A stretch of 58,887 nt of DNA, the filler included, from Jimgerdemannia flammicorona (taxonomy: Eukaryota), in the NCBI GenBank assembly GCA_003990765.1. It is 3 parts of 3 records of this genome, joined end to end, with 100 filler letters (N's around TTAATTAATTAA, not from the genome) between each part and the next. Parts side by side here need not be neighbours in the genome. Positions count along the whole stretch, not along the records: positions 1 to 19,564 come from RBNJ01001909.1; 2 more parts are not named here. The stretch is one strand, 5' to 3'. Shown in pieces: positions 1 to 48,536 of this stretch. Within the stretch, counting starts at the first letter, position 1, and every line of letters begins with the position of its first letter. The notes beneath the pieces were generated by a model that was not told where the DNA came from, ran no database searches, and worked only from the letters and a program-made list of their open reading frames with translations. The position numbers and the translations under genes are program-made.

Positions 1-441
1 CCCCTTTTCTGTGAAAGACCACTTTGTCGAACACTATCCCCACCCTCCTACTACTCTGCTCACAGATCTTTATCACCAAACTGTAATGTCTACCCCCCTG
101 AGGACCCCAACCCACCCACCATCTGGTCATCAGATCCCCCACCAATTCCTCCCACCTTAACACCTTCTCACGCAGCCCCAACTGCTGCCCCTCCTCAAAT
201 ACAAAAAGCCAATATCCCACCAGTTCCATCCATACTGCTAACACCCATCCTATAGTGAGCCAACTATCCCCCACCCCACCCACAAGCTGAGACCTTAAGT
301 CCTCTCATCGATCCCCCTCCCCCACTAGCCGATGCCCTATACCCAGTCTATCCCCTATTTCAGCCCAAAATTCCCCCAAGATCTCACACTCCCCCAGCCA
401 ATGTTCTGGCATCTGTACATGACCCCCAGCTTACCCAACAA
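1..441 (-). mobile_element. Fragment of L1/Tx1-like LINE (family A), ORF2 C-terminal region, inserted in the 5' LTR of gypsy element 1
   Basis: Colinear similarity to 32370-32800 and 44890-45300 (e.g. aaagaccactttgtc...ggaccccaacc...gccaatgttctggcatctgtacat). LTR1 sequence starts abruptly at 442. Confidence 0.8.
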
Positions 442-1154
442 TGGTGATATCATCAAGGACTACCCAGATAGTACCTAAACTCATAAATAGCATAGCAGTC
501 ATAGTATAGTTAGATTAGTCTTATATGACATGACTGTGAACTGACTCAGTAATCAGACGATCTCTTGATATATCAGATCATACTTATACTACGTGACTGT
601 ATTCTAACTCAGCAAAGCACTTAGTACTATATCCATATTCAGCATAGTCCAGATAGCCCCTCACTAGTATAAATACCCCCTCCCCCAGACCTCAGAATCT
701 CAGACTCGAACACACAAGAATATTCCTGAATACTTCCTCACAATATCCCTTCACACAACTACTCCTAGTATAGCAATATTATGAATAGCAAATAAACCTA
801 TTCCATAACCCACAAACCACTCTTAAGTAAATCTACTCCCTGTTAGGTCCCACTCCTAACCCCATCATGAAATTTCCTAATTGGGTATTATCTGCAGCGA
901 TACACCAATTCAACTAAGCTGGTCTTAGTTTCTTGAACTTCCTGAAATACAGAAAATCCTGAACATCCAGAACTAGTCCGAAAAAGGACTTTGGTTGAGA
1001 CGTTAACCCGATCTTGAAATCAATAAGCATAGAGGATGTACTCCATATGAAATTGATCTTGACCAGAAGAAAACAGTCTTCCAGAATATCCAGAACTTCC
1101 GGAAAACCCTTCCAGAACTATGTAATGGTTACCCTAAAAAGCAACCTTCTTACA
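442..1154 (+). repeat. 5' LTR of element 1, distal part only (LTR1 family)
   Basis: Matches 8718-9198 plus 10403-10626. Ends ...CTTACA. Contains TATAAATA (668-675) and AATAAA (791-796). Confidence 0.93.
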
Positions 1155-1157
1155 ACT

Positions 1158-1168
1158 TGGTAGCAGCG
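1158..1168 (+). promoter_or_regulatory. Primer binding site, probably initiator tRNA-Met
   Basis: TGGTAGCAGCG 3 nt after the LTR end. It is complementary to a tRNA 3' end CGCUGCUACCA, which implies the A1:U72 pair typical of eukaryotic tRNAi-Met. Confidence 0.7.
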
Positions 1169-2115
1169 GTTTACAATCCAATTCCACTTCAAGACACTTC
1201 CTCACCCGCTACAAACCCTTCTGAGAATTCCTACAAGTTGGTATAAAGCCCAACCTCTGAACTAGAATTTATCCTGAACCATCTGACAATCTGGAGAGAA
1301 TTGAATCTGACATACAAGGACAATTTGACCTCCACACCTGCAACAAGTAGGATAAACTTCATTCAAAGAAAGAAGTACTCCAGTTAAACCAGCAAATAGA
1401 TGAAACCCTATTCACCAAACTCCTTACACTACACCCAGCAAGTCAAGACAAAGAAGGTCTTATTGAAGTCTTCTTTATTCTTCTCAACAAGAGTTTTGTC
1501 AGCTCTACAAATCTGAGTGATCTAGGACAACCAGCAGCAGTCTTTCTAGCCTTAGTTTCTCACGAAGCCCAAGCCTCTGTAGCCAAGTGGCTCAACTCTA
1601 CCGACTTTCACCATACCAGGACCAAGACCACGTTATACTACTGATTCCAGAACAGCAAGACCTGCCATATTCTTAAAGAAGAAGCAAGAGAAACTCTTCA
1701 TCAACTACCTGACCCCAAACCTGAAGCAGGCCCTGCTACAGCCCTACCTGAATCTGAAACCAATACTGAACCTGAACTTGACTTTGAATTAAGTCCATCT
1801 GAAATCAGATATACAACTGATTCTGTCTACTTTGATGCCAAGCAAACTCAATTACATGGGGACCAAACTGAAGAAGAGGAGGAGTATCTCAGTGAATTTG
1901 ATTTCAGATATACCACCAAAGGAGAAGTACCTCCATCAGGACAGAATACACCTACACAGTAATAAACAGTTATCTATCAAGCCCTCACCCCAGACCCACA
2001 ACTACTACTCCAGCAACTTATACAGACCCAAAGAACCCCATCACACTCTGCACCAATACCTCAAGTAGTACTAGTAACACCACTACCAGCAGTCCAACTG
2101 CCTCCAGTAAACAAC

Positions 2116-5100
2116 ATGGTGAACCAACAGATTCTAAACCTCACAGCCCAGGTAGCCATAATGGTAGCAACCATTACTGCCTTAGCTGAACAGACCCGAC
2201 CTACCAAAAATCTGAGTCTACCTACCTTCAATGGTACTGCACAAGAAGTTCAAAGCTTCATTAGTGTAGTTGACACCAACTTCGAAGCCAATCAATGGAC
2301 TAATGAGCGAGTTGCTGACTGTGTTCTGACAAACAATCAAGACCACACTCTGGAACAACTCTTTGTCACCACTACAGCCTATGTCCGCCAAGTTGTTACA
2401 TTCTTCCAAGGACCTGCCAAAGAATGGTGGCAAACCCTTCCTGAAAAACCCCTCACATGGAATACCCGACCTGCAGTAGTTGCTCAGAATACAGCAAACA
2501 ATACCCCAGGATATGGAGCCCATCCTATAGCCCCTGGACTCAAACAACTCATGATTGCTCAATACTGCAGCAAAACCATGATCACCAAATCTTGAGTAAA
2601 ACTCCGCAACCTCAAATTTGATATATATGGCAAAGAAGAATTCGAAACCTTCTGTACAAAACTCGAGTCACTCCTGAATACTGTTGGCCTAGGATACATT
2701 GCCAATGATGAAGCACAAAATGGTATAAGAGCAGACCACTTATTCGATGCCCTGCCTGAATGGCTTACTAGAAAAATCTGAGAATAAGGCCACCCAGTTG
2801 GTTGCGACCACCAACAGTGGTGCCTGGCAAGAATCAAGACTATGGTCAAGCAAATCCTAACAGCTGGACCAATTCTGCCCCGAAGACAATTCAACAACAA
2901 GGAAAAGACTTGGACCAAGAAAGAAGAACTCAAGCATGAAGCATCCTGAGCTCTCTCTACATCCACCTCTTGGACACCCAGAAATCATAAACCTACCCAG
3001 TCAGGTACCTTCAAGAAACTTACTGAAGGCAAAAGGAATAAACTTCGAAGAAGTGGAGCATGCTTCTATTGCCGAAAGACAGAATACATGGCCAGTGCCT
3101 GCCCTAACCTAAAACCCTGAACAGCAACAAGAGCAACTATTACCACTCTGCACCACCTCAACAACCTGACCACCAGAATACTAGACTTTATCAATTTAAG
3201 ACAAACTGCTAAGGCCCCAACCAAAGGAAGTTAAAAAGCAGCTGAATATGATCTGTATGCAGCCAAAGAGGCTACAGTCTCCAACTGAGAAGTCAAACAA
3301 GTCTATACAGGAATCAGTATCCAAATCCCTGAAGGACATGTTGGAAGAATATGCTGTCGAAGCAGCCTAGCTTTGAAAGGACCCTCAGTAGAAGGAGGAG
3401 TCATTAATGAGGATTATACAGATGAAATTATTATCCTCATCTGAAACCACAGTTGGATACTCTTCAAAATCCCTATTGGTTTCTGCATTGCTCAGATCCT
3501 ATTCAAAAATGTCAAGTCAACCCTGACAGTCAAGGAAGTCCCCGAACTACTGCCCACCATCCGAGGATCCAAAGGATTTGGCTCATCAAACAAGGCCCCA
3601 GCCCAACCTACCATGAGCAAAGAAGAACAATTCTACAAGAAAATCAAAGATGGATATGTACCAGATGGCTGATGTCCCCATGGCATTGGAATGTACTCTT
3701 CCCAAATGATTGATGATTACTTCTTTTGTGTCAATGAACTAGCTCAAAGAAGAACCAATAGAAGGAAAGCTCCTATAACTGAAATCACCACCATTGGATC
3801 AGACAAACTGCTCACACTTAAGGCTTTTGTCAACCGAGCATCTGTCAAGATTATGATAGACAGTGGTGCCTCAGACAACTTTATCAATGAAGAGACAGCC
3901 AACAGACTCAAGGTCTTTATCTCTCCAGTACAGCAAACTCAAGCAGTTGCTACAGCTGATGGAACCTCACATGTTATTAGCAAAGAAGTCTGCAATCTAC
4001 CCCTCTGAATTAGCGACTACCGAGTACATGTTACCCTTCAAATTGTACCACTTCCTGACAATGAAATCATCCTTGGGACTCCATGGTTAAAACAAGAGAA
4101 CCTCATGATTGATTGGGTAAACCATTCTCTGACCATCAAGAAAGGATGCCACAACTTCAGACTGCAAGGCGAAAAGGACCCACTTAATTCTGGTGACCCT
4201 GGACTAAAGATCACCCACATCAACAAGCTACAACTCAAGAAATTGGCCAAGAAATGCCCTCTCTTCACTATCTCCATCCACCCATCCAAAGGAGAACCCA
4301 AGAACTCTGAAGAAGATTTCTCCAAAGTTGACAGCCATGTCAGACCACTACTCTAGAAATTTCGAGACATATTTCCAAAAAAACTCCCAAAAGGCCTACC
4401 TCCTAAATGAGCAGTAGACCATGCAATCAAGACTATTCCAGATGCCAAACCAACCTTCAAGTCAATCTACCACATGTCTTCAAGAGAAATCGATGCACTC
4501 AAGAAAGAAATTGACAAACTCCTAGAACAAGGATTCATTAGACCCAGTGTATCACTCTATGGTATACCAGTCCTCTTCGTTGTCAAGAAAGGAGGAGATC
4601 TGCGAATGTGCATTGACCACCATGATCTCAATGAACAGACCATCAAGAACTGTTGCCCACTACCAAGGATCAATGAAATATTCAATAGACTTACCAACCC
4701 ACAATTCATAAGCTCTTTTGACCTGCAAAATAGTTACTGGAAAATTGCCATGAAAGAAGAAGACATCTACAAGACAGCTTTCTGAACTCGCTATGGACAC
4801 TTTGAGTTTCTGGTTATACCCTTTGGCTTAACTAATGCTCTAGCAACCTTCCAAACTCTGATGAATATCATTCTGCATCCATACCTAGACAAATTCATTG
4901 TTGTCTACATTGATGACATCCTAGTCTTCAGCAAAACTCTGGAGGAACATCTTGAACACCTTGAACTAGTACTACTGAAACTCCAAGAAAACCGACTCTT
5001 TGCAAAACTCAGCAAGTGCAAATTTCTCCTGAAAGAAATTCAATTTCTTGGACACATTATCACTCCAAATGGAATAAAAGTGGACTCCAGCAAAATCTCT

Positions 5101-7248
5101 GCAATCAAGGATTGGCCCAGACCCAAGAAGCTGAAAGACCTCCAGTTATTCCTGGGATTAGCAAACTATTACAGGTGATTTGTTGCCAACTTTGCTAAAA
5201 TTGCTACCACCCTCACTCAAATGACCAAGTATAGTAAGAAACAAGAACAACCCTGGACCATAAAATAAGAGAAAGACTTCAACAATCTTGTAACTTGGGG
5301 ACCTGAGCAAGATACCACCTTTCAAGTACTAAAGGATGCCCTGATAATAACTCCAGTACTTCAAGCAGCAAACCCTGCACTGTCATATGAAGTTACCACT
5401 GATGTCTCTGACCTAGCCCTTGGAGCAGTACTCATGCAAGAAGGACACCCTGTGGCCTATCACTCTCACAAGTTCAATGATGCTGAAATCAACTATACAA
5501 CTCACAAGAAGGAAATGCTAGCCATTGTAGACACTCTGATCAAGTGGCAACCCTATCTAGAAGGAGCACACTTTACCATATTAACTGACCACAAATCATT
5601 AGTCAATATCAAGACACAGGCTACCCTTTCTCAGAAGCAAGCCAGATAGATGAAAATCCTCACCAACTTTGATTACGAAATCCAGTACCACCCTGGCAAG
5701 GAAAATATTGTTGCCGATGCAATCTCCAGACCACCAATTGAAGAGGTTATCTAAACTCTGACCTTGGTTACCAACACTATCATGGAACAAATCATTGCAG
5801 CATGTATTGATGATAAAGAAACTCAAGTACTCTGAGAAATCCTGAACAGTGATGATACTGACAAGCATACCCAGTACAATCAATACCAACTGAAGGACAA
5901 TGCTATCTACTACAAAGACAGACTGTATGTCCCAAACAACCAAGACCTCTGAAGGACTATCCTATTTGAATGTCATGATACCCCTACAGCTGGACATTTA
6001 GGATTTGATAAATGTTACGAAATTATCTCCTGAAACTTCTATTGGCCCCGCATGGCAGATCAGCTCAAAATCTACATCACTTTCTATGATGCCTGCCAAT
6101 GAAACAAGTCCTCAATACTAGCAAAACCTGGCTTACTTCACCCTATCTCAGTACCATCTGCTAATTGGGAACAAATCTCTATGGACTTCATTGTACAACT
6201 ACCCTGAACCAAGAACAGGAAAGATGCAATTGTTGTCTTTATAGACTATCTTAGCAAACAAGCCCACTTCATGCCTACCACCACTACTGCAACAGCACCA
6301 GACATAGCCACACTCTTGTTTGATAACATCTTCCACTATCATGGTCTTCTCAAGATCATTGTTAGTGACCAAGACCCGAAATTCACCAGCCATTTTTGGA
6401 AAGTCCTCCATGCATACCTTGGAACAAAACTTGCACTATCCACAACCTTTCACCCAGAAACTGATAGCCAAACTGAAAGAATGAACTGAACTCTGGAACA
6501 AATGCTAAGGAACTATGTTTTCTACAGACAAGATAACTGGTATGAACACCTCACCACAGTTGAGTTTGCCTATAATAATAGCAAGCAAGCCTCTCTTGGA
6601 ATGAGCCCATTCTTCACCAACATTGGACAAAACCCAAACACCCCTTTGACATTTATCTGAACAACTGAAGAACCCTCTACAGTTGAAGCTGTTGAAGAAT
6701 TCTTACTTTGAATGTGCAACCTAAGCCAGATTACCATTGAAAATTTATCATAAGCTCAAGAACAACAGTCACAGTATGTTAACCAACACTGCCAAGAAGA
6801 AACCTTTGATATTGGAGAAGAAGTTCTACTAGACATCAGAGGATACTGAGTTGACAACCTCAAGCACAGACTATCTACAAAGCTGAACAGCAAGTTCATT
6901 AGACCATTTGAAGTCATTGTACAAGTCTCTCCAACCTCCTACAAATTGGTGCTACCAGATACTATTAAGATTCACCCAGTCTTTAATGTTCAATACCTCA
7001 AGCAATACAATGAGAATGATGATGAGCTATTTCCAAACCGGACTACCAAACCACCTGCACCTATCATTATTAATGACCAAGAAGAGTATGAAGTTGAACA
7101 AATCCTCAACAAATGTGGCAACAAGAGCCACCCTGAGTACCTTATCAAATAGAAAGGTTACCCAATCCACAATGCAACCTGGGAACTCAAGATCAATCTC
7201 CAGAATGCTACTGACCTAGTTCAGAAATATGATTCCTTGAACAACTAG
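2116..7248 (+). pseudogene. gag-dUTPase-pol polyprotein of element 1, single frame, multiple nonsense codons
   Basis: ORF pieces at 2116, 3691, 4105, 4474, 4861, 5434, 6271 and 6946 all lie in one frame. Motifs: CFYCRKTEYMASAC (3061), IDSGASDNF, YIDD, TDVSDLALGAVL, ISMDF, HPETDSQTERMN, chromodomain EYEVEQIL...YLIK*KGY...ATWE. Confidence 0.93.
3190..3591 (+). other. dUTPase domain of element 1 (between Gag zinc knuckle and protease)
   Basis: Frame-1 translation AAEYDLYAA...TGISIQIPEGHVGRICCRSSLA...GGVINEDYTDEI...IAQ...RGSKGFGSS shows the five trimeric dUTPase motifs in mutated form. Confidence 0.9.
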
Positions 7249-7364: not shown

Positions 7365-7377
7365 AAGAAGGAGAGAG
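7365..7377 (+). promoter_or_regulatory. Polypurine tract of element 1
   Basis: AAGAAGGAGAGAG immediately before the TGTAAG LTR start at 7379. Confidence 0.85.
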
Positions 7378-7666
7378 TTGTAAGTGCACAACCTCCAAGC
7401 CACCGAAATTACATGTCACCCTCTGAACAAGCCATTGAAATCACACACAACCTCTGAACAAATCTGGAAATCACCTGCTTGATCACAAAGCTGAGTCAAA
7501 CTGAAGTCACAGCACACAAAGCTGAGTCAATATGAAGTCACAGAATATAAGATTTATACAAACGGAATCTTACCAATCAGGATCGAATGTATATATACCG
7601 AGCACCAAAATACGTCGAACCAGAAAACCAAAACAAACAACAACCACAACTTCCAAACATACAAAC

Positions 7667-8755
7667 ATGACCACTGAGATCTATATCCATATCCATGCTG
7701 ACATTTGGAATATCATTGTCAATGAAGCCACACCCCCTCTGCCCCTCATGAATATCCATAGCCTAGCACCCCTCTACTTCGTAGAAGCCCGATGGAATGC
7801 TCTGAACATACTTAGTGAGGCCCACTGAATTGGACAAATCTCAAGCTACTACCAGATCGGCCACCTCCTGGAAGACATGGTTGAACACCACCACAATATA
7901 GACATTACCCAGATGTCTCAACACCAGAAGCTCATTGCCCACAAACATTGAGAACTCTTCTACGAGTACAGTACCATTATTCCCCACCTCCAAGTTACTA
8001 CCAGTGAAATGATTACTACTCTGTCCTATGGCCAAATTGATGACATGATATAAGAACTCAACCACAAGTACCTTGAGTACGTCAAAACCACAGACAGAAC
8101 CTTCCCACACCCCAATGATCATATCCTACAAATGCTCCAAGTTGGATATGCCATAAAGGACATCTATGATATAATCCACTTCGATGAAGATGAAGCAGAA
8201 GACAATGATCCCTCTGATGCCGACATGACCTCTAGCCAAGGATCTCTGCCAACCCTGATCACTCTGCCAATCTTGCCGATGAACTTACAACAGTTTATAA
8301 CTATATACAAGACTTATTGGGACAATGACCACTGGCATGAATACCAACCCACATTCACTCCCAATTACTTCAACTATAATGAAGAGACTGGAGAATACAA
8401 CCTGTACCTCCAGACAACCTTCGAGATTGAACCAACCACTCCACCACCTGAGCATGAACCATAGCCACCAGCTTACTACAATTCCGCAACTCATAGTACT
8501 GTAACCTATAGAAGGTATACAGATAGCAAATCTGATGAAAGTGAAGACGATGCACCCCTCTTTCACCCACCAATACCTTATCCAGCATATGAGATAGATG
8601 ATGCCATCTTGTGGGACAGAGATGAAGTTTCAATATATTATTACCTCAGCAAACAAGGAGAAGTAATCTGCGAACCACTTTTCCTAGACAACTACTTCAT
8701 CAGAGATGATGCAATTGATGGTGATGTCATCGAGAACTACCCAGATAGTGCCTAA
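7667..8755 (+). pseudogene. Orphan ~362-codon ORF inside the LTR1 U3 region (a few transition-type stops)
   Basis: ATG 7667 to TAA 8755 in one frame, joining track ORFs 7532 and 8132 (MTTEIY...EARWNALNIL...YWDNDHWHEYQP...VICEPLFLDNYFIRDDAIDGDVIENYPDSA). Present in all three full LTR1 copies. Confidence 0.7.
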
Positions 8756-9198
8756 ACCCATAAATAGCATAGCAGTCATAGTATAGTTAGATTAGCCTTA
8801 TACAACATGATTGTGAACTAACTCAGCAATCAGATGATCTCTTGACCATACTTGTACTATGTGACTGCATTCTGACTCAGCAAAGCACTTAGTGCTATAT
8901 CCATATTCAGCATAGTCCAGATAGCCTCTCACTAGTATAAATACCCCCTCTCCCAGACCTCAGAATCTCAGACTCGAATACATAAGAACATTCCTGAATA
9001 CTTCCTCACAATATCCCTTCACACAACTACTCCTAGTATAGCAATATCATGAATAGCAAATAAACCTATTCTATAACCCACAAACTACTCTTAAGTAAAT
9101 CTACTCTCTGTTAGGTCCCACTCCTAACCCTATCACGAAATTTCCTAATTGGGTATTGTCTGCAGTGATACACCAATTCAATTAAGCTGGTCTTAGTT

Positions 9199-10390
9199 CA
9201 GCTCCTTTCTCTGCTACCTTACCGGTCACAAGATTTGGTGGGTGACCTTCCAAGTCTCCTTTCCCCTATTATTACACCCTTTACCTCGAGTTGGTTTGCT
9301 GTACCTATAGGGGCATGGTGGGAGGAGGGCAATGGTGATGAGTTGCCCCTTTATCAGTATCAGATCAGTGTTTCCTCCACTTTTTCGTGGATTCTGATGC
9401 CTTCGGCTGCATCTGGGGTGTACCTGTTTTGGTGCGGCACCTTCATCCTTTTGCTATCACCAACAAGGTGTTGTCTCGGTGTGTCTCAGACTATGTAGAG
9501 AGTCAGCCGACCTTGGGCATCAAGTGCTCAGTATAGGTTACCTGCAGGTCTTCGGTGCCTGTGGTGGGGCCCTCTGGCTTTGGCAAGCTTCCCGGCGAGC
9601 ATGGTTCTGGCATAGGTGACTGCTTTTTGGGTGTTGTCGGAATGGGAGGGGAGATGGCCATCACAGATAGGAGGAAGGGCAATTATGGTGAACCAGTAGA
9701 GTGTCAGGCTAGGGGCAGTTATTGGGGCTGGGGTAGGTGCTGCTTCGGTGGGGCCTTTTGATTGGTGCGGCGTGGTTAGGTGGTAGGTGTCACTATCGGC
9801 TTCTTTTGGCAGTCAGCAGAGTTGGGCCCCAGTCATCAGGAGGGGTCAGGAGACTTGAGGCTACCCATTTCAGACATCTTGGCTGCACTCAACTGGAACT
9901 GGGAGCTGACAGGGCAACGTGATTGAGGCCTACAGGCTTGAGTAGTGGGGTATTGGGAGTTTCCTCCTGCCTCACGTATAAGTCCTTTACTCACCTCGAC
10001 TAGGAGAACCAGGCCCTACCCACCATGTTGTGCTTTGATGAGGGTTTTTTCTTTGTCTGTCATTCTCTTTGGAGTGGCAGGGGCTATTCTATTTAGCTTG
10101 GGCATGGCTTTGTACATACATTGGGTTCTCAGGCATGCACTTTCGGTCATTGGTATATGGTTGGGTTTCCCCTGGCAGTAGGGAGAGCATGGTGTGCAGA
10201 ATGAGGTGTGGGCCTATTGGCCCTACTATGTCTGGCATGGTCGAGCTGCTGGACAATAGCTAGCCTAGGTTAATGGGGTGGCAGTACTTGGTGGGTGGTG
10301 GGGGAGGGTTTTGGCCTATATAGTCTAGGTTCCCTTCCAATAAAATTCTGTGGGACATGAGTCCATTAAAAAAAAAAAAAAAAAAAAAAA
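9199..10390 (+). mobile_element. Poly(A)-tailed retroposon, family B (probably 5'-truncated)
   Basis: AATAAA then poly(A). 12-bp TSD CTGGTCTTAGTT at 9187-9198 and 10391-10402. Homologous to 12897-14032 and 24158-24610. Confidence 0.88.
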
Positions 10391-10679
10391 CTGGTCTTAG
10401 TTTCTTGAACTTTCTGAAATATAGAAAATCCTGAACATCCAGAACTAGTCCGAAAAAGGACTTTGGTTGAGACGTCAACCTGATCTTGAAATCAATAAGT
10501 GTAGAGGACATACTCTATATGAAATTGATCTTGACCAGAAGAAAATGGTCTTTCAGAATATCTAGAACTTCTAGAAAGCCCTTCCAGAACTACATAATAG
10601 TTACCCTAAAAAGCAATCTTCTTACAGAGGGGCTATCTGGATTATGCTGAATATGGATATAGTACTTAGTATCCTGCTG

Positions 10680-12738
10680 TGTAAGCACACAACCTCCAAG
10701 CCTCCAAAATCACACATCACCCTCTGAACAAGCCACTAAAATCACAAGCAACCTCCAAACAAATCTGAAAATCATCTGCATGATCACAAAGCTGAGTCAA
10801 ACTGAAGTCACAGTACACAAAGCTAAGTCAATACAAAGTTACAGAACACAAGATTCACACAAACAGAATCTTACCAATCAGGACCAAATGCATATATATC
10901 AAGCACTGAGATGCATCAAAATAGAAAATCAAAACAAACAACAACTATAACTTCTGAACATATACAAATATGACCACCGAGATCTATAACCACATCTGTA
11001 CTGACATTTGGAATACCATTATCAACTGAGCCATACTCCCTCTACCCCTCATGAATATCCATAGTATGGCACTCCTCTACTTCGTGGAAGCCCGATGGAA
11101 TGCCCTGAATATGCTTAATGAGGTCTACCAAATCAGACAAATCTCAAGCTACTATCAGATCAGCCACCTCCTAGAAGACATAATCAAACACTACCATGAT
11201 ATGGACATTACCCAGATGTCTCAACACCAGAAGCTCATCACCTATAAATATCAAGAACTCTTCTATGAGTATAGCACTATTATTCCTCACCTCCAAGTTA
11301 CTACCAGTGAAATGGTTACTACTCTGTCCTATGGCCAAATCAATGACATGATATAAGAACTCAACTACAAGTATCTCGAGTACATTGAGACTACAGACAG
11401 AACCTTCCCACACCCCAATGACCATATCCTGCAAATGTCTCAAGTTGGATATACCATGAAGAATGTCTACAATATAATCTACTTCAATGAAGATGAAGCA
11501 GAAGACAATGATCCCTCTGATACTGACATAACCTCAAGCCAAGGATCTCTGCCAATCCTGATCACACCACCAACCCTGCCAATAAACTTACAATAGTTTA
11601 TAACCACATATGAGACTTATTGGGACAATGATCACTAGTATGAATACCAACCCATATTTACCTCTGGTTACTTCAACTATAATGAAGAAACTGGAGAACA
11701 CAACCTGTACCTTCAGACAACTCTTAAGATTGAACCAACAATGCTGCCACCCAAGTATAAGTGACATGAACCACAGCTGCCAGTTTACTATAACCCCATG
11801 ACTCATAGTGCTGTAATCTACAGAAGGTATGCAGATAGCAAATCTGATGAAAGTGAAGACAATGCACTACTTCTTTACCCACTAATACCTTATCCAGCAT
11901 ATGAGACAGATGATACTATCCTATGGGATGGTGATGAAGTTTCAATGTATTATTATCTCAGTGAATAAGAAGAAGTAATCTGCGAACCACTCTTCTTAGA
12001 TGACTACTTCATCAGAGATGATGTCATTGATGGTGATATCATTGAAGACTACCCAGATAGCATCTAAATCTATAAATAGCCTAGCAGTCATAGTATAATT
12101 AGATTAGCCTTGTACAACATGACTGTGAACTGACTCAGCAGTCAGACAATCTCTTGATATGTCAGATTACTCCTATATGACTATATTCTGACTCAGCAAG
12201 GTACTAAGTACTACATCCATATCAAGCATAGTCCAGATAGCTCCTTACTAATATAAATACCCCCTCCCCCAGACCTTAGAATCTCAGATCCAGATACCCA
12301 AGAACACTCCTGAATACTTTCCCACAATATCCCTTCACACAACTACTTCTAGTATAGCAATATCATGAATAGCAAATAAATCTATTTAATAACCTACAAA
12401 CTACTCTTAAGCAAATCCACTCTCTATTAGGTCCTACTCCTAACCCTATCACAAAATTTCCTAATTGGGTATTGTCTGCAGTGATATACCAATTCAACTA
12501 AGCTGGTCTTAGTTTCTTAAACTTCCTAAAATATGGAGAATTCTGAACATTCAGAACTAGTCTGAAAAAGAACTTTGGTTGAGATGTTAACCTAAACTTG
12601 AAATCAATAAGCATAGAGGATATACTCCATATGAAATTGATCTTGACCTTAAGAAAATGGTCTTCCAGAATATCCAGAACTTCCAGAAAACCCTTCCAGA
12701 ACTACATAATAGTTACTCTAAAAAGCAACCCTCTTATA
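10680..12738 (+). repeat. Solo LTR1 with 5-bp TSD
   Basis: TGTAAG...CTTATA (mutated CTTACA), flanked by TGCTG at 10675-10679 and 12739-12743. No PBS or PPT adjacent. Confidence 0.9.
10970..12067 (+). pseudogene. Second copy of the LTR1-encoded ORF
   Basis: Same start and stop as the 7667 copy, same frame throughout, net 9 nt longer. Confidence 0.65.
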
Positions 12739-12894
12739 TGCTGAGTTAGAATACAGTCACATAGTATAAGTATGATCTGATATATCAAGGGATTGTCTAA
12801 CTGCTGAGTCAGTTCACAGTTATGTTATATAAGGCTAATCTAACTATACTAATGACTGCTAAGCTATTTATAGATTTAGATGCTATTTGGTTAG

Positions 12895-12896
<2 letters not shown>

Positions 12897-12934
<38 letters not shown>

Positions 12935-12946
12935 TTTTTTTTTTTT

Positions 12947-12985
<39 letters not shown>

Positions 12986-14032
12986 GACTCATATCTTGCA
13001 GATTTTTATTGGAAGAGAACCTAGACTATATAGGCCAAAACTCTCTCCCACTACCCATCAAGCACTGCTCCCTCATTAATCTAGTCTAGCTATTATCTAG
13101 CAGCTCAACCATACCAGATGCAGCAAGACCTATATTGGCCTACACCTCATTCTGTACACTATGCTCTTCCTACTACCAGAGAGAACCCAGTCATATGCCA
13201 ATGACCAAAAGTATATGCCCAAGACCTCAATGTATATATAAGATTATATCTGAATCAAATAGAATAGCCCCTGCCACTCCAAAAAGAATAACAGGCAAAG
13301 AAAAACTCTCATCAAAGTATATTACAGTGGGTAGGGTCTGGTTCTTCCAGTCGAGGTGAGTAAAGAACTTACACATGAGGTAGAAGGAGACCCCCAATAC
13401 CCCACTACTCAAGCCTATAGGCCTTGATCACATTGCTATATCGGCTCTCAGTTCTAGTTGAGTGTAGCCAAGATGTCTGAAATGGGTAGCCTCAGGTCTC
13501 CCAATCTCCCCCAATGACTAGGGCTCAACCTACCAAATTATCAAAAGAAGTTAAAAGTGATACCTACCACCTAACTACTCCACACCAATCAAAAGGCCCC
13601 ACCAAAGCAGTACCTGCCCCAGCCCCAACAACTGCCCCCAGCCTGATACCCTACTGGTTTACTATTATTGCCCTTCCTCTTATCTATAATGGCCATCTCT
13701 CTTTCCATCCCAATACCACTCAAAAAGCAGTCATCTACATCAGAACCATACTTGCTGGGAAGCTTGCCAAAGCCAGAGGGCCCCACCACAGGTACTGAGA
13801 ACCTACAGATAACCTATACTGAGTACTTGATGCCTAAGGTTGGCCAACTCTCTACATAGTCCGAGATACACTAAGACAGTACCTTGTTGGCAATGGTAAA
13901 AGAAAGAAGATACTGCATCAAAATGAATATACTTCAGATATAGCCAAAGATACCAGAAACTATGAAAAAGTAGAGAAGACACTGATCTGATACTGATAAA
14001 GGGGCAACTTATCACTATTACCTTCCCCTCAC
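12897..14032 (-). mobile_element. Family B retroposon, antisense copy
   Basis: Long poly(T) at 12897-12981, then the reverse complement of ~9320-10367. 16-bp TSD TGCTAT(T/C)TGGTTAGTC at 12881-12896 and 14033-14048. Confidence 0.88.
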
Positions 14033-16089: not shown

Positions 16090-19000
16090 TTATGCCGTTC
16101 TAGAACTCGTTTCGGCGAAGCTTTCGAAACCGATTGCCTGCAACATTGCTGCACGATGTTGTAGATTCTTCAGAGATGCCGCCGCCTCTTGCAATAAAGC
16201 GAGCTGATATCCTGTTAGTAATGATTTCATTTTCGAACCACCGTCATCTCTGGAATCAACATTGCGCACTGCCACATTTGCCTCAACACGTTTGCCTTTC
16301 GTCTTTTTTTGTGACTTTCGCTTATTTGACATCTGTGCCGGCTTTACACCGCCTGTGGCGTTAACATCAACTCCAACTCCGTCATACCCGATTATCCCGC
16401 CTGTCAAGCTGGAAAGCGTTTGAAGAATTAAAGTGAATAAGGCATCGGCGGCCTTCTCGGAGCGGACATAAGTAATGCCTCGACAAAGAAGATATATGGC
16501 AATGGTGAGGAAGGTGGGGGAAGAATTTGTTGAAGATGGATCAGAGGCAGACAAGCGTGTAGACCAGGGTGGAAGAGTCTAACATGTCAACAATGTTCCA
16601 CATGAATCAACAATAGTTTTAGATTTATAAAGATCAAAAATACAACGTCAACAGACAGTTCCACGATTTATATGTGTTAAACAAAATCCATACAGACCTT
16701 TAAAGCTTTAGTTATGTTGGAGACGAAATATGCCTCTTCGCCATCGTCAATTTGTGCCTGTGTCTCAGTTGATGCATATTCCAACGAGGATCGAGACGAT
16801 ACAGCCAGGAGGCGCATCGAAAAGGCGATGATGGCCGCTGTGTGCTTCTCTGTAGGATGAATGACCGCATCATGTTATTCACTGTGAAGACAGAATGTCT
16901 TTTGAATTCTAACGTCGCCACCTCCTTTTACATACCATCGAGAGATACTTGACTATCCACGCTTTCTTCACTCTCAGGTCCTTCTGCAACGACTTGGAAA
17001 ACATTGATTTCTCTCAACAAATAATTTGCAGATAGCAAATCCTTCTCAATTAACCATGACACGAGCTTGATTAGTAGGCGTTCGTACTCCTCCCCCACGC
17101 TCGATGACGATGATGGGTGAAGGACGTGGCAAAGAGCGAGTGGAAAGATCGCCTGATTGACTGTTCCTGCGATTGCTTGTGTTGCAGTAACACACTATTT
17201 ATAACGGAGATTGAAGTTTCGCAAGTTAGAATTCATTTGGCGCTTGAAGGCATTAACTACGACGCATAGAACGAAATTCAATGATCTACATAGCTTACCT
17301 CACATAATTTCGTCAACCACTCGTTCGACACACAACATGCTTCGGCAAATGAGATCCATTGGTGCATCGCCCGTGCCACGTCCGTAGTTTTTGCGCTCCA
17401 CCCGTTCCCCGATTCGCTCACAATCGATCCGTTCACGTCGCCGCAAAGCGCCGCGAGCGGCGTTGGGACTAGAACGGCGTCAACAGAGAATTTAAACCGA
17501 AGACCGCTCTCCCGGAAGAGTGATTGAAGGAGGAGTTGGACTGTCCAATCTTTAAAACGCAGGTTAAGGAGGGTGAGGCATGTGGGGACAACGGCAAGAA
17601 CAACGAAGAAACAAGAATTCCAGTCGATGGGATAGTAGATGGAGCAGCCATAGAAAGAATCACGTACCAAGGGTTCTGGATTTCTCGTACAGTTTCCTCG
17701 TCACATCTCTAGCTAACTTCTCCGTTAAGTCTATATTATGGTGCGAAGGAGATAAAGATCAACAAATATACACGAAAATATTTCTTTCAACTGTTTTCCA
17801 ACACTCAAATGAATAATCGTACCAGCATGACTCTTTTGTTCTTCCAGCCTCGTGGCATATCGCTCTGCCTCCTTTATCACCGTTTTCGCTACGAACACCA
17901 CATCCTCCCACTGTCTCATCCCGATTTTCCTGCTTTCTGCTCTCTCCTTCCTTCGATGATCCAGTAGCACCGATAACAAATGCACGAACGACAAAGGACG
18001 ACATCCGTAAAACCACGAATCGCGCGGCATTGGTAATGCTGGTGGTACATGTGTATCGTTCGAAGAAAACGGTGGCGTCGCCCACAGGGCTGTTGAAGTA
18101 GGAAAGATTTGGTGTAGAATGGCTAGCGAGATTTTGAGTGGGAAAAGACTGCAAGGGGGTGTCTGTCCGACAGGGTATTGCAAGACGGGGATGATACATT
18201 GAATGAAGTACTCTCGAATGTCGAGAAGGAGGCAAGGACGCTGACGTGAAAGGTGTACAGCGGTAGTACTGTAGTGGGCCCATTCGCCAACATCCTGGGC
18301 GGACAGGTGGAGCGAAGTGATAGTAACTGAGGATCTCTGAAAAGGACGACAAATACAGGATGTATGAATACAAAGCTCTGACATCATGCACCAAAGCATA
18401 ACGCCCGTAATCAAGTTATACAACTTCAATGTATGATTGACTCACCAACCCCATGCACTCGACCACAAACTCCACAAAGTTGCTCTTTCCGCCAGCCTCC
18501 ATCGCTTTGTCCGTATCTGGTATTTCATGAACACCTCCATTCCGCATCTCTACTAGTATATCACGCAATACCATTACAAGCAAAGCAACGCTATCGCCAG
18601 ACCGCAACCATGCGAGCTTGCCCAGGTGCCGTCGCAAAAGGCTCGCAATCATGAGGCATTGGCCCTTGTTGCGGATAGCTTCGAAACAGAGAGCACGCAG
18701 GACATGGTAAGGAGAGACGAGGGAGAGCTGGAGAAATGGTGACGACACGGAGTACGGTTAAATAATCGGAGAAATGCTCTAATAATAGGAGATCAATCAA
18801 CCATAAAATTAAATCATCCTATGCATCGACAAATACCTCACGCAATTTCTCCACAGCCACTCCCCCATCCTCCCCCATGTCCCCAACAACGTTTTCGCGC
18901 TTTTCATGACTTCGCATGTTCGTCTCGTCCTCTGCATTGGCATAATGCAAAACGTCGTCCGTTGGCACAATTGCTACAAGCTGGTTGCACGACATCATGA

Positions 19001-19511
19001 GTTGGGTGTGAAAATCGGCAGGCCAGAATGTCCAGGAACCAAAAGTAGGTTGGTGAATATCTTGAGTGTGCGAGCTATTGGTGTGATTAAAGTTGGATGG
19101 TCAATAAATAGTTTGCAATCTACTGAAAGTCATACATCGATGCTAGAATTACCGAGAATTATACAGGTAATCGCGAAGCAAAAGTCGATCGTTGGGTGTA
19201 TGGAGCAACGAGAACGTCCTCAGCAAGAGCGAACACAACATCTGCGGTTCAGTGGGCATTTCAATGGCAATAGTCGCGGTGATCAGAAAGCCAAAGACAG
19301 GATCAAAACTGCATTCCACGACCGGCAAAGATGTATGCTCAAGTCGCTACTTTCCACTCACACGTACCTTGATCACACTTGCATCCACGATCTGAGGTGT
19401 TCGATCGCTCAACATTGCCAACCTTCGTATGCTCTCAATAAAATCCTCGACGAGTCCCTCGGAAACGATTAGGGTAGAAAATTGGTCAACGGCGGTAAGG
19501 TCGCTGCGCAT
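16090..19511 (-). CDS. GEMIN4: GEMIN4-like alpha-helical protein (SMN complex component), 5'-incomplete, 10 predicted exons, ~826 aa visible
   Basis: CpG-normal island. Phase-consistent GT-AG model with exons 19511-19368, 19241-19153, 19074-18837, 18727-18446, 18336-17823, 17730-17668, 17549-17299, 17194-16936, 16849-16698 and 16578-16090. Colinear motifs recall human GEMIN4 from memory: FHTQLMMSCNQL~FQEDLNTTFNQL; LLDIREYFIQCIIPVL~LLEPDEVLKEFVLPFL; WFYGCRPLSFVHLLSVLLD~WLQTCSPFPLLFSLCQLLD; LDWTVQLLLQSLF~LDWTVGLRLKSFF; EACCVS~ECCCVS; EYERL..LIEKDLL~EWQRL..LLEKQLL. Confidence 0.72.
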
Positions 19512-20357: not shown

Positions 20358-22468
20358 TGTAAGTATACAATCTCCAAGTTACTGAAATCATATGTCACTC
20401 TTCAAACAAGTCACCAAAATCACATACAACCTCTGAACAAATCTGAAAATCATCTGCAAGATCATGAAGCTATGTCAAACATAAGTCATAATATATAAGC
20501 TGAGTCAACTTGAAGTTCTGAAACACAAGATTTATATAAATGGACTCTTACCAATTAAGACTGAATGCATATATACTGAGCACAGAGATACATTGAAACA
20601 GAGAACTACAACAAACCAAACAAACAACTCCAACTCCTAAATATATATACAAATATGACCACCAAGATCTACAACTGCATCCATACTAACATTTGGAATA
20701 CTATTATCAATCAAGTCATATCTTCTCTACCTCTTATAAATATCTATAACTTAGCACCCCTCTACTTTATGGAAGCCCAATGGAATGCCCTGAACATACT
20801 TAGCAAGACCTACTGAATCAGACAAATCTCAAGCTACTATCAGATTGGCTGCCTACTAGAAGACATAATCAAACACCACTATAATATAAACATTACCCAG
20901 ATATCTCAACACCAGAAACTCATCACCTGTAAACACTGAGAATTCTTCTATAAGTACAGTACCTTTATTCCCTACCTCTGAGTTACTACTACTAAGATGA
21001 TTACTACTCTATCTTAAGGCCAAATTGATAATATGATATAAGAACTCAACCATAAGTATATTAAGTACATTCAGACTACAGACAGAACCTTTCTGTACCC
21101 TGATGACAATATTCTGCAAATGTCTCAAGTTGGTTATACCATAAAGGATATCTATGATATAATCTGATTTAATAATAATGAAGCAGAAGACAATGATCCC
21201 TCTGATATCAATATGACCTCAAGCTAAGAATCTATGTCAACCTTGATCACTCTGCTAACTCTGCTGATGAACTTACAATAGTTCATAACATCTATAGGAC
21301 CTATTGGAATAATGACTACTAGTATAAATCTCAGCTTATGTTCATTTCCAATTACTTCAACTATAATGAAGAAATCAGAGAACACAACCTGTATCTCCAG
21401 ACAATCCTCAAGATCAAATCAACAACTCCACTATCTGAGAATGAGCAATATAAAGCATAACTACCAGTATACTACAACCTTATAACTCATAGTGCTGTAA
21501 CTTATAAAAGATATACAGACAGCAAATTTGATAAAAGCAAAGATGATATACCTCTCCTTCATCCACCAACTCTATACCCAGCATATGAGACAGATAATGC
21601 TATCTTATGGGATAGTGATGAAGTCTCAATGTATTATTATCTTAGCAAATAGAGAGAAGTAATCTGTGAACTACTCTTCCTAGATGACTACTTTATCAGA
21701 GATGATGTTATTGATGGTGATATCATAGAAGACTACTCAGATAGTATCTAAATCTATAAATAGCTTAGTAGTCATTTGTATAGTTAGATTAGTCTTGTAT
21801 AATATGACTGTGAACTAACTCAGTAGTCAGATGATCTCTTGATATATCAGATCACACTTATACTATATGACTATATTCTGACTAAGTAAGAAACTAAGTG
21901 CTACATCTATATTCAGCATAGTCCAGATAGCCTCTCACTAGTATAAATATCCCCTTTCTAAGACCTCAGAATCTTAGACTTAAATAAACAAAAACAACTC
22001 CTGAATACTTTTCTATAATATCCCTTTACACAACTACTCTTAATATAGCAATATCATAAATGGCAAATAAATCTATTTAATAATCCACAAACCACTATTA
22101 AGTAAATCCACTCTCTATTAGAACTTACTCCTAACCTCATCACGAAATTTCCTAATTAGGGATTGTCTGCAGTAATATGCCAATTCAACTAAGCTGGTCT
22201 TAGTTACTTGAACTTTCTGAAATATGGAAATCCTGAACATCCAGAACTAGTCTGAAAAAGGACTTTGGTTGAGACATTAATCTAACTTAAAATCAATAAG
22301 CATAGAGGATATACTCTATATAAAATTATTTGGACCTAAAGAAAACAGTCTTCTAGAATATCCAGAACTTTCAGAAAACTCTTTCAGAACTATGTAATGG
22401 TTACCCTAATAAGTAACTCTCTTACAACTTAGTAGTAGCAGTTTATAATCCAATTCTGCTTTAAGACT
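20358..22468 (+). repeat. LTR1 copy (20358-22426) followed by a mutated PBS and ~40 bp of internal sequence; 5' end of a deleted element
   Basis: TGTAAG...CTTACA, then ACTTAGTAGTAGCAGTTTATAATCC, matching 1155-1180. Confidence 0.88.
20655..21751 (+). pseudogene. Third, more decayed copy of the LTR1-encoded ORF
   Basis: Same start and stop context. One nt shorter than copy 2 (one frameshift) and with many transition stops. Confidence 0.6.
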
Positions 22469-24157: not shown

Positions 24158-24610
24158 GTCCACAGGTTTGAGTAGTGGGGTTTGGGGGTTTCCTCCCACC
24201 TCATGTGTAAGTCCTTTACTCACCTTGACTGGGAGAACCAGGCCCTATCTACCATGTTGTGCTTTGAGGAGGGTTTTTTCTTTGCCTGTCATTCTCTTTG
24301 GGGTGGCAGGGGCTATTCTATTTGGCTCGGGTGTGGCCTTGTACATACGTTGGGTTCTCAGGCGTGTGCTTTCGGTTATTGGCATATGGTTGGATTTCCC
24401 CTGATAGTAGGGAGAGCATGGTGCGCAGAATGAGGTGCAGGCATATAACAGCCCTGCTGCACCTGGCACGGTCAAGCTGCTGGACAATAGCTAGCCTAGG
24501 TTAATGGGGGGGCAGTGCTTGGTGGGTGGTGCGGGAGGGTTTTGGCCTCTATAGTCTAGGTTCTCTTCCAATAAAATTCCACGGGACATGAGTCCATTAA
24601 AAAAAAAAAA
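24158..24610 (+). mobile_element. Family B retroposon, short 5'-truncated copy
   Basis: Matches 9930-10390. Poly(A) tail. 15-bp TSD CTATAAGATCTTAGA at 24143-24157 and 24611-24625. Confidence 0.88.
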
Positions 24611-26929
24611 CTATAAGATCTTAGAAAGGTACTCTAATAAGAACTTGCTTATAACAAACTTGAGTTAGTCTAAGAGATATACCTTGAAGAGAATCTGACA
24701 TATTTGAAGAACTCAGTAACTACTATATAATAACTTAGTACTCATTGGCTAGTGATTCAAGATGAATCCCTCACTTTTACGCTGAAAAATGGACAACTCC
24801 TACAACAACTATTCTGACTATAAGAGTTATCTCTGCAAGAATTCAAGACAAGATAGAAATATATCCCCCTATATTCTATAGATATACATACTACTGAAGA
24901 GTCAATCCTGACCTTGCTACTATATGAGCCCTCAACATAGATGTACAATTGGCTCTTCTACCAATCAGCCTCAGAGGACCTGCCAGAGATAAGTTCAATA
25001 TAGCTACCATTGCTAATACTGATATAGCCAAACTTGCCAATATGAAGACCTTCCTCAGAACTACATACTATACTGAATAGATTAAGTAAGCTCTCAAGGA
25101 TAAATTCAATACTATCTGTCAGAGACTTAGTTAAGACTCCAACTCATTCTACATCTGAATCTGCTACCAGATTGTCTTGTCTAGCTATGAATACCCTCAA
25201 GGAACAAATAGCTGATTCAACCTGTCTGAAAGGAGTTCACTCTGAAATTGCCCTAGCAATTCAGTTTACTCCAGCTGCTCTGACACTTGACCAGAAAGTG
25301 GTCTTTGTACAGAGATATTGGACTGCCAGACACTCTGCTGAACACTCAATGGAGAAAATAACTGACATTAAGATAGAGCCATCAAAGTCAATCAGTATCA
25401 TATCCGCCACAGTTGTAAACAGACAACCATCCCTACCTACTCTCAAGATAGCCAAAGCTGATCCAGTGGAGGAACTTACCAAGCAGTTTGCTAAGATAAC
25501 TACATACCTTGGTAATGTTGTTAGAGAAGTCTGAAGCACTAACAGGAGACCAGTATAGAGATTTGTAGCTGCTATAGAAGAATGCAATATCATATATTTC
25601 AGATATAGAGAAGAAGGCCACTATGCAAGATTTGTATGACCAAAACAAGACATAAAGCCCAACCCAGCAATGCTACTAGAACTAGAGAACAAATCAATGC
25701 AGTAGTCATTGAGGAGATTGGCAATACTGATGATGAAGAATACTATGAAAAGTCTGAATTCTACTCTGTTATTGAAGATGCCAGAACCTGGTCTAAGCCC
25801 TATAATAAGAAGAGCAACTGCAAGCCAGTTAGAAGATAAAAGAAGACCCCAGCTGTTACTATTCAAAGCAAGACCCAACCTGAGAAGATTGATCAAGACA
25901 TAGAGTTAGATAAAGCTGCCTATCAAATCATTGAAGGCACTACTCCAGTCTTAGGAGAAAGTGAAAGCAAGAAAGAATAGAAGCTGTGCAAGACCAAGAT
26001 CTATCAGTATGATATTTATAAGGATCTTAAGGAATAAAAGGTCAATGCTACTTTTGGACAGCTAGCTGAAGTCTCTGCCTTCAGATAGCATTTGAGTGTA
26101 GGACTTGCAACTACTGTTAAGAATCAAGAGTACAATATTGTAGAAGCCCACAATATACAAGAAGATAATCAAGAAGATTCAGGAAAAGAATCTGAAGACC
26201 AGTACAAGACATCAGCCTATACCCTATGTCAGATTAAAGATTATATCTTTGATGCTATTATTGATACTGGTGCTGGAGGATGCCTCATAAGTAAGAAGAC
26301 AATCAACTACCTTGGCTGAGATATTGAAGAGTCCACTAAGATAGTCTATATTACAGCAGATGGTATATGAGCTACCCTCCTTAGCAAGATCTGAAAAGTC
26401 CCCATCAAGATTGAAGGAGCTACTATCCCAATAGATATAATTGTTATAAGCACTACCAACTATGATATCCTCATTGGCAACTAATGGCTTCACAAGGCCA
26501 AGGCCATCATTGACCTCAATGCCCAGAAGATGCAGATCAACTATAGAGAAAGAAAGGTATGAGTCTCTATCAATGTCTATAATGGAGTACTGTCAGACAT
26601 AGTGGAAGGAGATGAAGAGAATACAGAAGTCTTCATATACTCAGTGTACAAGAACAAGAGTAAGACACTCAAGCTCACAGAAGAGCAGTGGTACAACAAA
26701 ATCATTGATAGCTATGTCTCTCAAGGAAGATACCCCCATGGCACTAGAATGTACTGCTCTAAATACCTGAATAACTGCTGGTCCTATATCAGTGAAGTCA
26801 GAAAAATCTGTCAACAAAAGTATGAGCAAGAAGCTGCCAAAGCAAAAAGTAAAGCTGAAAAAGATGACCAGCCCACAGAGCTTCAAGCTGACAGTGATGA
26901 TAAGGAGGAATAAGAACCAGACATCACCC

Positions 26930-48503: not shown

Positions 48504-48536
48504 ATTGATGATATATGTGATGTCATCAATCTGCCT

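Follow-up and report, generated by a model that had tools for sequence, protein, structure and literature searches.

Several complex retroviruses carry accessory genes at their 3' end that reach into U3 of the long terminal repeat (LTR), such as human and simian immunodeficiency virus (HIV/SIV) nef and foamy-virus tas and bet, which have an internal promoter. The superantigen (Sag) of mouse mammary tumour virus (MMTV) is a membrane glycoprotein. In the accessible text of PMC2118998, its expression is tied to the open reading frame (ORF) of the MMTV 3' LTR. LTR retrotransposons, too, are known to have extra genes; little is understood about these, and those described are found in the internal region. 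Here, we describe an ORF of 362 codons that starts and stops inside the LTR of a Ty3/gypsy retrotransposon of Jimgerdemannia flammicorona (assembly GCA_003990765.1). The window, that is, the whole stretch of DNA analysed, consists of three joined parts and is 58,887 nucleotides (nt) long, filler included. The ORF is a pseudogene in all three of its copies in the window, and we consider it probable that it derives from an LTR-embedded, element-borne and formerly selected protein gene.

A protein frame within an LTR is characteristic of MMTV sag (the 'LTR ORF'), a frame of ~320-360 codons in U3 of a long LTR and hence in every LTR copy, as here; judged by motifs, the present ORF also lies upstream of the LTR TATA box. 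The two have no sequence relation (no viral family in Pfam at E<=1 and no PDB match), and the ORF protein has no hydrophobic membrane segment, so that neither a sag-type fold nor a membrane anchor was found. Moreover, MMTV is a retrovirus, whereas the ORF described here belongs to an env-less Ty3/gypsy retrotransposon. The genes nef, tas and bet share with the ORF a 3'-end position reaching U3 and possibly an own promoter, and by analogy an acidic regulatory protein is one plausible function for it. However, these genes begin in the internal region and overlap the LTR in part, whereas the present ORF lies entirely inside it and is kept by solo LTRs; no homology to them was found in Pfam or among PDB sequences.

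Among retrotransposons, the comparison is with the additional ORFs (aORFs), which include Grande gene23, those of RIRE2 and Retand, the env-like frames of Athila and SIRE, ORF0 of Ogre and Retrosat2 and that of the fungal Boty (accessible parts of PMC7264820 and PMC3485330). According to the same parts of these sources, aORFs resemble our ORF in being orphans beyond gag-pol, present in most family copies, without database similarity or an assigned function, but their place is the internal region, upstream of gag or in the interval from pol to the 3' LTR, and not the LTR proper. The phrases 'in the LTR' and 'within the LTR' are absent from the available text of the aORF review (PMC7264820), and a limited phrase search of the open-access literature returned no case of a protein gene lying within the LTR of a retrotransposon, which is not proof of absence. 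Cassandra, a terminal-repeat retrotransposon in miniature with a 5S rRNA gene in its LTR, likewise multiplies a gene unit with its own promoter within the LTR (10.1101/2023.07.14.548913, in part); Cassandra, however, is a non-autonomous plant element with an RNA gene and an RNA polymerase III promoter, whereas here a protein frame is carried by an autonomous element. In what is accessible of PMC2864245, dUTPase-bearing chromoviruses like the present host element are described in the basidiomycetes Postia (PosPlaTy3 of Postia placenta) and Phanerochaete and in the ascomycete Tuber, with the dUTPase of PosPlaTy3-3 at the amino-terminus of Pol; that text mentions no LTR-borne ORF for them. These hosts agree with the fungal setting in which the earlier note placed the element.

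The LTR-borne ORF and the evidence for past selection

Two features define the reading frame in copy 1:

7667..8755, plus strand: LTR-borne ORF, copy 1, 362 codons and a terminal TAA, with four internal stops and no frameshift
8051..8053, plus strand: TAA at codon 129, common to three of three copies in the window; of two natural relatives, P0004 ends here and P0003 has Gln

The internal stops of copy 1 are TGA at codon 54, TGA at 95, TAA at 129 and TAG at 266. Copy 2 (10970-12067) has six stops and no frameshift. In copy 3 (20655-21751), which contains 11 stops, the loss of 1 nt near 21290 moves the continuing frame to +1. An earlier note on this DNA had already placed a frame of about 362 codons within the LTR at these three locations, and its coordinates proved correct, as did the in-frame 9-nt indel it had reported between copies 1 and 2, which lies at 8452, where copy 1 lacks 9 nt present in copies 2 and 3. 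All three LTR copies retain both the start codon (ATG at 7667) and the terminal TAA (at 8753). An in-frame upstream ATG at 7532 in copy 1 is not retained, and the stretch 7532-7667 contains indels of 6, 4 and 2 nt; we therefore take 7667 as the start. At 11 of the 12 stop-bearing codon columns, another window copy has a sense codon; the exception is the column of codon 129.

The ORF begins 288 nt after the LTR start and ends 181 nt before the TATAAATA at 8936. Like aORFs, it recurs in the family, since each of the three LTR copies spanning the region contains it; unlike aORFs, it is not in the internal region but inside the LTR, and thus also in the solo and 5' LTRs. Given that it lies within the LTR rather than beside it, a solo LTR carries the whole cassette: promoter-like module, ORF, and the LTR's TATA box and AATAAA.

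Several features indicate that the frame was coding. In copy 1, the ORF frame has 4 stops, compared with 18 and 38 in the other two forward frames, and 2000 mononucleotide shuffles gave a mean of 18.4 stops (standard deviation 4.0), none of them with 4 or fewer. Its stop density (4 in 362 codons) does not differ from that of the element's polyprotein (35 in 2031; Fisher P=0.50), and neither contains a frameshift.

The nature of the decay allows older changes to be separated from younger ones. The 5' and 3' LTRs of the host element (element 1) were identical at insertion; over 705 aligned bases, 52 transitions but not a single transversion separate them today. Decay after insertion has therefore been transition-only, and it follows that transversions among the copies are mostly older and come from the replicating lineages. 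Between ORF copies 1 and 2, 156 of 166 differences are transitions. The 28 transversion sites in the ORF fall 8, 3 and 17 times at codon positions 1, 2 and 3, where composition predicts 9.2 at position 3 (P=0.0025), and 13 of the 28 are synonymous, against 14% expected from all possible transversions (P=3.6e-5). In the other five reading frames, 0 to 8 of the 28 would be synonymous (all P>=0.12), and outside the ORF, the LTR has 36 transversion sites, which are spread over the three phases without preference (9, 13, 14). The ratio of nonsynonymous to synonymous change (dN/dS) based on transversions is ~0.19 among the three window copies. Transitions show no significant codon-position bias (P = 0.09-0.33), as expected if decay followed the death of the copies; for the same reason, an ordinary dN/dS between window copies would be uninformative.

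Indels point in the same direction. Among the three LTR copies, 2 indel places fall in the 1086-nt ORF (9 nt and 1 nt) compared with 11 in the other 973 nt (binomial P=0.0066). Contigs of three soil metagenomes and one organism (sequencing runs X1-X4) agree: among the indels listed (7 more exist), those in the ORF have summed lengths divisible by three (6+1+2, or the 9-nt form at 8452), while those outside it measure 4, 4, 2 and 3 nt. The coding constraint expected of an aORF is thus visible here as synonymous transversions in one frame of six and as indels that avoid the frame.

Judged from these substitution patterns, the ORF encoded a protein under purifying selection while the lineages of the three copies were diverging, and we have high confidence that it is both coding and LTR-borne. 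The approach may be of wider use, as splitting transition-only decay from earlier transversions detects past selection in mutated repeats without a consensus.

Among the three LTR copies, C-to-T change favours CpA, CpG and CpC (0.41-0.48 of sites) over CpT (0.18). From its sequence signature, the decay looks like repeat-induced point mutation or methyl-cytosine deamination.

Host element, LTR architecture and promoter-like motifs

The left 23 kb of the window consists of nested copies of one LTR retrotransposon family. The following features, all on the plus strand, belong to element 1 and to the other LTR copies:

1156..7248: element 1 polyprotein, a single frame with 35 stops and 0 frameshifts, comprising gag, dUTPase, protease, reverse transcriptase, RNase H, integrase and chromodomain (from translation)
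441..1154: truncated 5' LTR of element 1, equivalent to the LTR from 8718 to its end, in which the last 12 ORF codons remain
1158..1169: primer-binding-site-like TGGTAGCAGCGG, 3 nt past the LTR end ...CTTACA (read from the sequence)
7365..7377: polypurine tract AAGAAGGAGAGAG, immediately upstream of the 3' LTR (read from the sequence)
7379..9198: LTR copy 1 (3' LTR of element 1), first 1820 nt, beginning TGTAAG
10388..10626: LTR copy 1, last 239 nt, ending CTTACA; matches 916-1154, 12500-12736 and 22191-22426
10680..12738: solo LTR (copy 2), with the 5-nt target-site duplication TGCTG on both sides, carrying ORF copy 2
20358..22426: LTR copy 3 (a 5' LTR), followed by a decayed primer-binding site and ~40 nt of internal sequence, carrying ORF copy 3

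In Pfam, the 2031-residue frame of element 1 shows the order dUTPase (685-811), RVP_2, RVT_1, RT_RNaseH, Integrase_H2C2, rve, SH3_Tf2-1 and Chromo (1978-2026), which identifies a dUTPase-bearing Ty3/gypsy chromovirus. The dUTPase stands ahead of the protease, and the gag-protease-reverse transcriptase-RNase H-integrase series ends in a C-terminal chromodomain, as in chromoviruses generally. The ends likewise have the Ty3/gypsy features: TG...CA termini, primer-binding site, polypurine tract and a short target duplication. The best full-coverage matches to the polyprotein are metagenome contigs at 49% identity, in which the dUTPase is also present; named matches are from plants and algae (33-51% identity), a set biased by the length filter.

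The stretch 7379-9198 matches 10680-12514 (84.8%) and 20358-22205 (79.4%), with the start base identical in all three copies, and 441-1154 matches 8718-9198 at 91.6% identity (blastn), with 916-1154 matching 10388-10626. The LTR of about 2 kb postulated earlier is therefore real, at 2059 nt, although copy 1 is not contiguous, as a foreign insertion of 1189 nt (9199-10387) separates 7379-9198 from 10388-10626. This 1189-nt repeat has an inverted copy at 12959-14032 (81%) and a partial copy at 24162-24610 (89%). The solo LTR, whose terminal CA now reads TA, sits in an inverted fragment of the same LTR family and splits it into 10627-10679 and 12739-12898. At the left end of the window, a proline-rich decayed repeat (1-440; 72% to 32374-32803 and 45066-45318) replaces the first 1340 nt of the element 1 5' LTR, and the junction at 441 is not at an end of this repeat.

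The LTR family is abundant in all four sequencing runs, and all 30 bins of the LTR are covered; soil run X1 alone has 2821 contigs with at least 80% likeness on the 1820-nt LTR stretch. At ~40 listed places (the best 40 of 416 variable ones), nearly all contigs of the four runs have C or G where copy 1 has T or A, for example at 7435, 7583, 7590 and 8420; copy 1 is therefore a decayed member of a large, widespread family.

Around the ORF, the LTR contains four groups of promoter-like or processing motifs:

7484..7545, plus strand: two tandem 31-nt modules, each GCTGAGTCA-nnn-TGAAGTCACA, found by repeat search and enhancer-like in look
7573..7597, plus strand: CCAAT (7573-7577) and TATA-like run (7590-7597), ~70-95 nt upstream of the ATG, retained in three copies
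8860..8881, minus strand: inverted GCTGAGTCA...AGTCACA module, ~55 nt upstream of the main TATA box, 81-86% complementary
8936..9064, plus strand: canonical TATAAATA (8936-8943) and AATAAA (9059-9064), 116 nt apart, both retained in three of three copies

The motifs listed previously (TGAGTCA at 7492 and 7523, CCAAT at 7573, TATATATA at 7590 and the ATG at 7667) were all found in their places, and those upstream of the ORF are retained in the three copies except for part of the second TGAGTCA module. Position 7590 is C in nearly all soil-metagenome contigs, leaving ATATATA. The module, with the general form GCTGAGTCA-nnn-TGmAGTCACA, thus occurs twice upstream of the ORF and once more, inverted, upstream of the main TATA box, and a second, decayed inverted site is located at 8819-8827. 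Exact GCTGAGTCA sites in the window are confined to the LTRs of element 1's family. On the canonical reading of these motifs, the U3/R boundary would be at ~8965 and the ORF would lie in U3, as previously proposed: the ORF is indeed upstream of the LTR's TATAAATA and AATAAA, and the assignment to U3 comes from motifs rather than from mapped transcripts. That the ORF has a promoter of its own is nearly an even call on the motif evidence, leaning slightly to the negative.

The predicted protein and its relatives

Among 1.84 billion representative proteins and 5.8 billion clusters, we found two real relatives of the ORF protein. The first, P0003 (247 amino acids, encoded on a 998-nt ENA contig), aligns to residues 115-361 with 60% identity and 79% similarity, contains no stop, differs by three in-frame gaps and has the same C-terminal end; at this composition, the probability of 247 codons being open by chance is ~2.5e-6. 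The second, P0004 (128 amino acids, from one JGI/IMG contig), is 84% identical over residues 1-128, with the same start Met and 128 open codons. A third candidate, P0005, in which a 36-residue stretch was matched six times (E=6.5e-6), is a repeat protein on ENA contigs and was judged a repeat-inflated match rather than a relative. A peptide-pattern scan of JGI metagenome contigs gave 326 pattern matches, none of which was confirmed as a relative, and a purine/pyrimidine-degenerate 30-nt pattern gave no match in JGI metagenomes. Scans of viral contigs and prokaryote genomes returned no relatives. No cellular homologue was found among the 1.84 billion representatives, a search that does not extend to unannotated eukaryote genomes.

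The absence of a recognisable domain, already reported from inspection, was borne out by Pfam and PDB sequence searches. At E<=1, Pfam returned for two window copies only GrpE and DUF5338, both far below cutoff, and at E<=10 it returned nothing for P0003 and P0004; a PDB profile search gave no matches. The ORF has no similarity to the element's own gag-pol or to the rest of the window. An apparent tblastn likeness of 305-475 to the ORF C-terminus (E 0.05-1) is explained by the 12-codon LTR remnant and proline-rich low complexity. In the ESM Atlas, P0003 had no usable feature match (structure rows at TM<=0.30), and P0004 fell with mixed unrelated clusters at 0.90-0.93 with low recognition. AlphaFold2 modelled the N-terminal 128 residues as all-helical (pLDDT 58, pTM 0.53), and a Foldseek search of this model against PDB found nothing at E<=0.001 (best E=1.3).

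Strong acidity and an abundance of aromatic residues and proline mark the C-terminal two thirds of the ORF protein. P0003, which covers most of this part, has an isoelectric point (pI) of 4.05, with 46 Asp and Glu against 10 Lys and Arg, 36 Phe, Trp and Tyr, and 24 Pro in 247 residues. P0004 is less decayed than copy 1: it has Arg at five places where copy 1 has His, and also at the stop codons 54 and 95. Many of the surplus His and Tyr residues in the window copies, as well as their stops, thus go back to transition decay. Of the earlier description as His/Tyr-rich with an acidic C-terminus, Tyr-richness and acidity are genuine, while the His content is partly an artefact of decay. No hydrophobic segment of membrane strength was detected (19-residue hydropathy maxima 0.57-1.60, natural relatives <=0.97); by hydropathy, the signal peptide and transmembrane segment of Env-like ORFs are therefore lacking, although a dedicated signal-peptide predictor was not used.

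The product would consist of a predicted helical N-terminal domain of ~125 residues and an acidic, aromatic- and proline-rich remainder (pI ~4). Because of its LTR-borne position, its composition and the analogy with 3'-encoded accessory proteins of complex retroviruses, we suggest, very tentatively and as a guess more likely wrong than right, that it might be a regulator or adaptor, for example a transactivator of the LTR's repeated modules. The anti-silencing role suggested in the earlier note gained no support from these results, nor do they speak against it.

The favoured explanation, its rivals and the remaining window

In the explanation that we favour, the ORF would be an accessory gene wholly within the LTR of a ~10-kb Ty3/gypsy chromovirus that carries a dUTPase in its polyprotein. 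It would be transcribed from the promoter-like block at the LTR 5' end (two TGAGTCA 31-nt modules, CCAAT and a TATA-like run), with the transcript ending at the LTR poly(A) signal. The protein could then be supplied in trans by any LTR, also by a solo LTR, as each would be a self-contained unit. Each inserted copy was subsequently degraded by the transition-only process (C to T, G to A). A selected gene placed wholly in an LTR would mean that a solo LTR could be a complete transcription unit outliving the loss of its element, and that retrotransposons outside the retroviruses can evolve U3-borne accessory genes. The extended form of the idea, in which each LTR expresses a trans-acting acidic activator, adaptor or counter-silencing factor that benefits the family, is speculative, and we think it unlikely. 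If it is true, it would be without precedent among Ty3/gypsy retrotransposons and would mirror the accessory genes of complex retroviruses, and solo LTRs would be active suppliers of a shared factor rather than inert scars.

Several observations weigh against a selected LTR gene. None of the sampled copies is intact, with 4, 6 and 11 stops and, in copy 3, also a frameshift. ORF divergence between window copies is 15.3%, compared with 15.6% and 11.8% in the flanking LTR; that the ORF is no better conserved than its flanks is expected for dead copies, and the window alone shows no present-day constraint. The selection test comprises 28 sites in three copies. Within the first 128 codons, the 7 transversion sites (3, 2, 2) have no signal of their own, at low test power. 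Regarding the relatives, the start of P0003 at Met115 suggests that its own upstream part is broken, and, being known from a 998-nt contig alone, it may be a relative outside an LTR. AlphaFold2 reached a pLDDT of 32 over the full length, a weak prediction, and GCTGAGTCA with up to one mismatch has 21 matches in the window against 16.7 expected, so that the short promoter motifs are not distinguishable from chance.

A further objection is the TAA at codon 129. Stops fixed across copies, which the earlier note had named as evidence against a gene, are present to this extent. We estimate the probability of an independent origin of this TAA in three copies at ~0.04, by our own arithmetic, from CAR-to-TAR (R, purine) rates of 1/15, 2/15 and 4/15 at the other 15 codons and three hits at one of 16. 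The value could be higher, as changes of this kind are concentrated in A-C-A contexts and, at several codons, affect more than one copy. The master copy of the subfamily may already have been truncated at codon 129, in which case the stop was inherited. An inherited stop, however, conflicts with the selection signal downstream, which is the strongest that we found: past codon 129, transversions fall 5, 1 and 15 times by codon position (P=4e-4). Parallel hits, a genuine two-part gene, and readthrough or reinitiation are the candidate explanations.

The two-part option takes the stop at face value: the LTR would code for a helical protein of 128 residues, with the region past the stop expressed separately by reinitiation, readthrough or its own transcript. 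This agrees with the stop in three of three window copies and at the end of P0004, with the span of P0003 (residues 115-362 only), with the helical model ending at about residue 127 and with the selection signal being strongest past the stop. Nevertheless, P0003 has Gln at position 129 and reads through, no readthrough or reinitiation signal was identified, and there are parallel hits elsewhere, codons 54 and 95 being hit in all three copies in two different ways. Furthermore, C-to-T and G-to-A decay cannot remove a TAA, so the stop persists once it has arisen. A split or truncated gene is consequently, in our assessment, quite unlikely. Somewhat less so, though still unlikely, is an arrangement in which the block at ~7480-7600 is the main promoter of the element, R extends from ~7620 to the poly(A) site at ~9080, and the ORF, lying in a 1.45-kb R, is the first cistron of the genomic RNA, comparable to plant ORF0/ORF1 before gag. 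The only tandem enhancer-like module, with CCAAT and a TATA-like run, is indeed at the LTR 5' end, 70-190 nt before the ATG, and ORFs upstream of gag occur in long-LTR plant elements such as Retrosat2 (accessible part of PMC3485330). On the other hand, a well-kept TATAAATA stands 116 nt before a well-kept AATAAA, 3' of the ORF, which is the usual layout of a U3 end and R, and the module also occurs inverted just upstream of this TATAAATA. We know of no example of an R region of 1.4 kb, and this counts against the arrangement.

The remaining alternatives deny the ORF a role in the element or an identity as a gene. LTR retrotransposons are documented to capture genes (PMC7264820, in the part available), and the protein has no retroelement-type domain, so the ORF might be a fragment of a cellular or foreign gene carried in the LTR without service to the element. 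Captured ORFs, however, are usually present in one or few copies (same part of PMC7264820), whereas this one is in all three LTR copies of a family abundant in four runs, and 1.84e9 representatives and 5.8e9 clusters hold no real homologue beyond two short metagenome fragments of the same ORF. Purifying selection during the divergence of the retroelement lineages, together with base composition and decay that match those of the polyprotein, makes such a passenger very unlikely, and an accessory gene serving the element is the likelier status of the ORF, one that we hold with reasonable though not high confidence. The stretch 7490-8881 might instead be an old inverted-repeat transposon nested in the LTR, given that GCTGAGTCA...AGTCACA arms of 22-31 nt, 81-86% complementary, flank the ORF. 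Yet the arms are not terminal, with two tandem copies on one side and a further site at 8819; because the TGAGTCA core is palindromic, inverted matches are inflated; we see no flanking duplication; the ORF encodes neither a transposase nor any other known transposable-element protein; and the segment is in all three LTR copies. We therefore regard a nested element as highly improbable. As for a chance open frame in non-coding LTR DNA, spurious frames are common in LTRs of this size, and the codon-aligned antisense frame is fairly open too (6 and 10 stops). Within the limits of the tests, this is refuted by the shuffles, the third-position and synonymous bias in one frame, the indels and the 60%-identical open relative, and its probability is practically negligible.

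Compared with these alternatives, an LTR-embedded accessory gene is the reading that we retain. Elsewhere in the window, a second, different dUTPase-bearing retroelement occupies 25045-27831. Its gag zinc knuckle and its protease (D[TS]G) are near 25045-26445, and its dUTPase (27016-27831) follows the protease instead of preceding it. The gag-protease part of this element is found again at 39868-41187. The pair 25045-26445 and 39868-41187 was considered as a second family of LTR ORFs and rejected, as it is the gag-protease of this other element. Rfam and tRNA scans of the window gave no matches. Open frames of 130-236 codons are found at 16090-19472, in the least repeat-like and GC-richer stretch (0.45-0.49), and could represent a host gene or another decayed element; Pfam assigned no family to the ORFs in 16-19.5 kb. 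Finally, the region 41189-52958 is GC-rich (0.46-0.56), with a strong C-over-G skew and tandemly duplicated units: 41189-44749 matches 44764-48322 (77%), and 48329-50630 matches 50659-52958 (76%). A reverse-transcriptase domain is located on the minus strand at 46152-47585.

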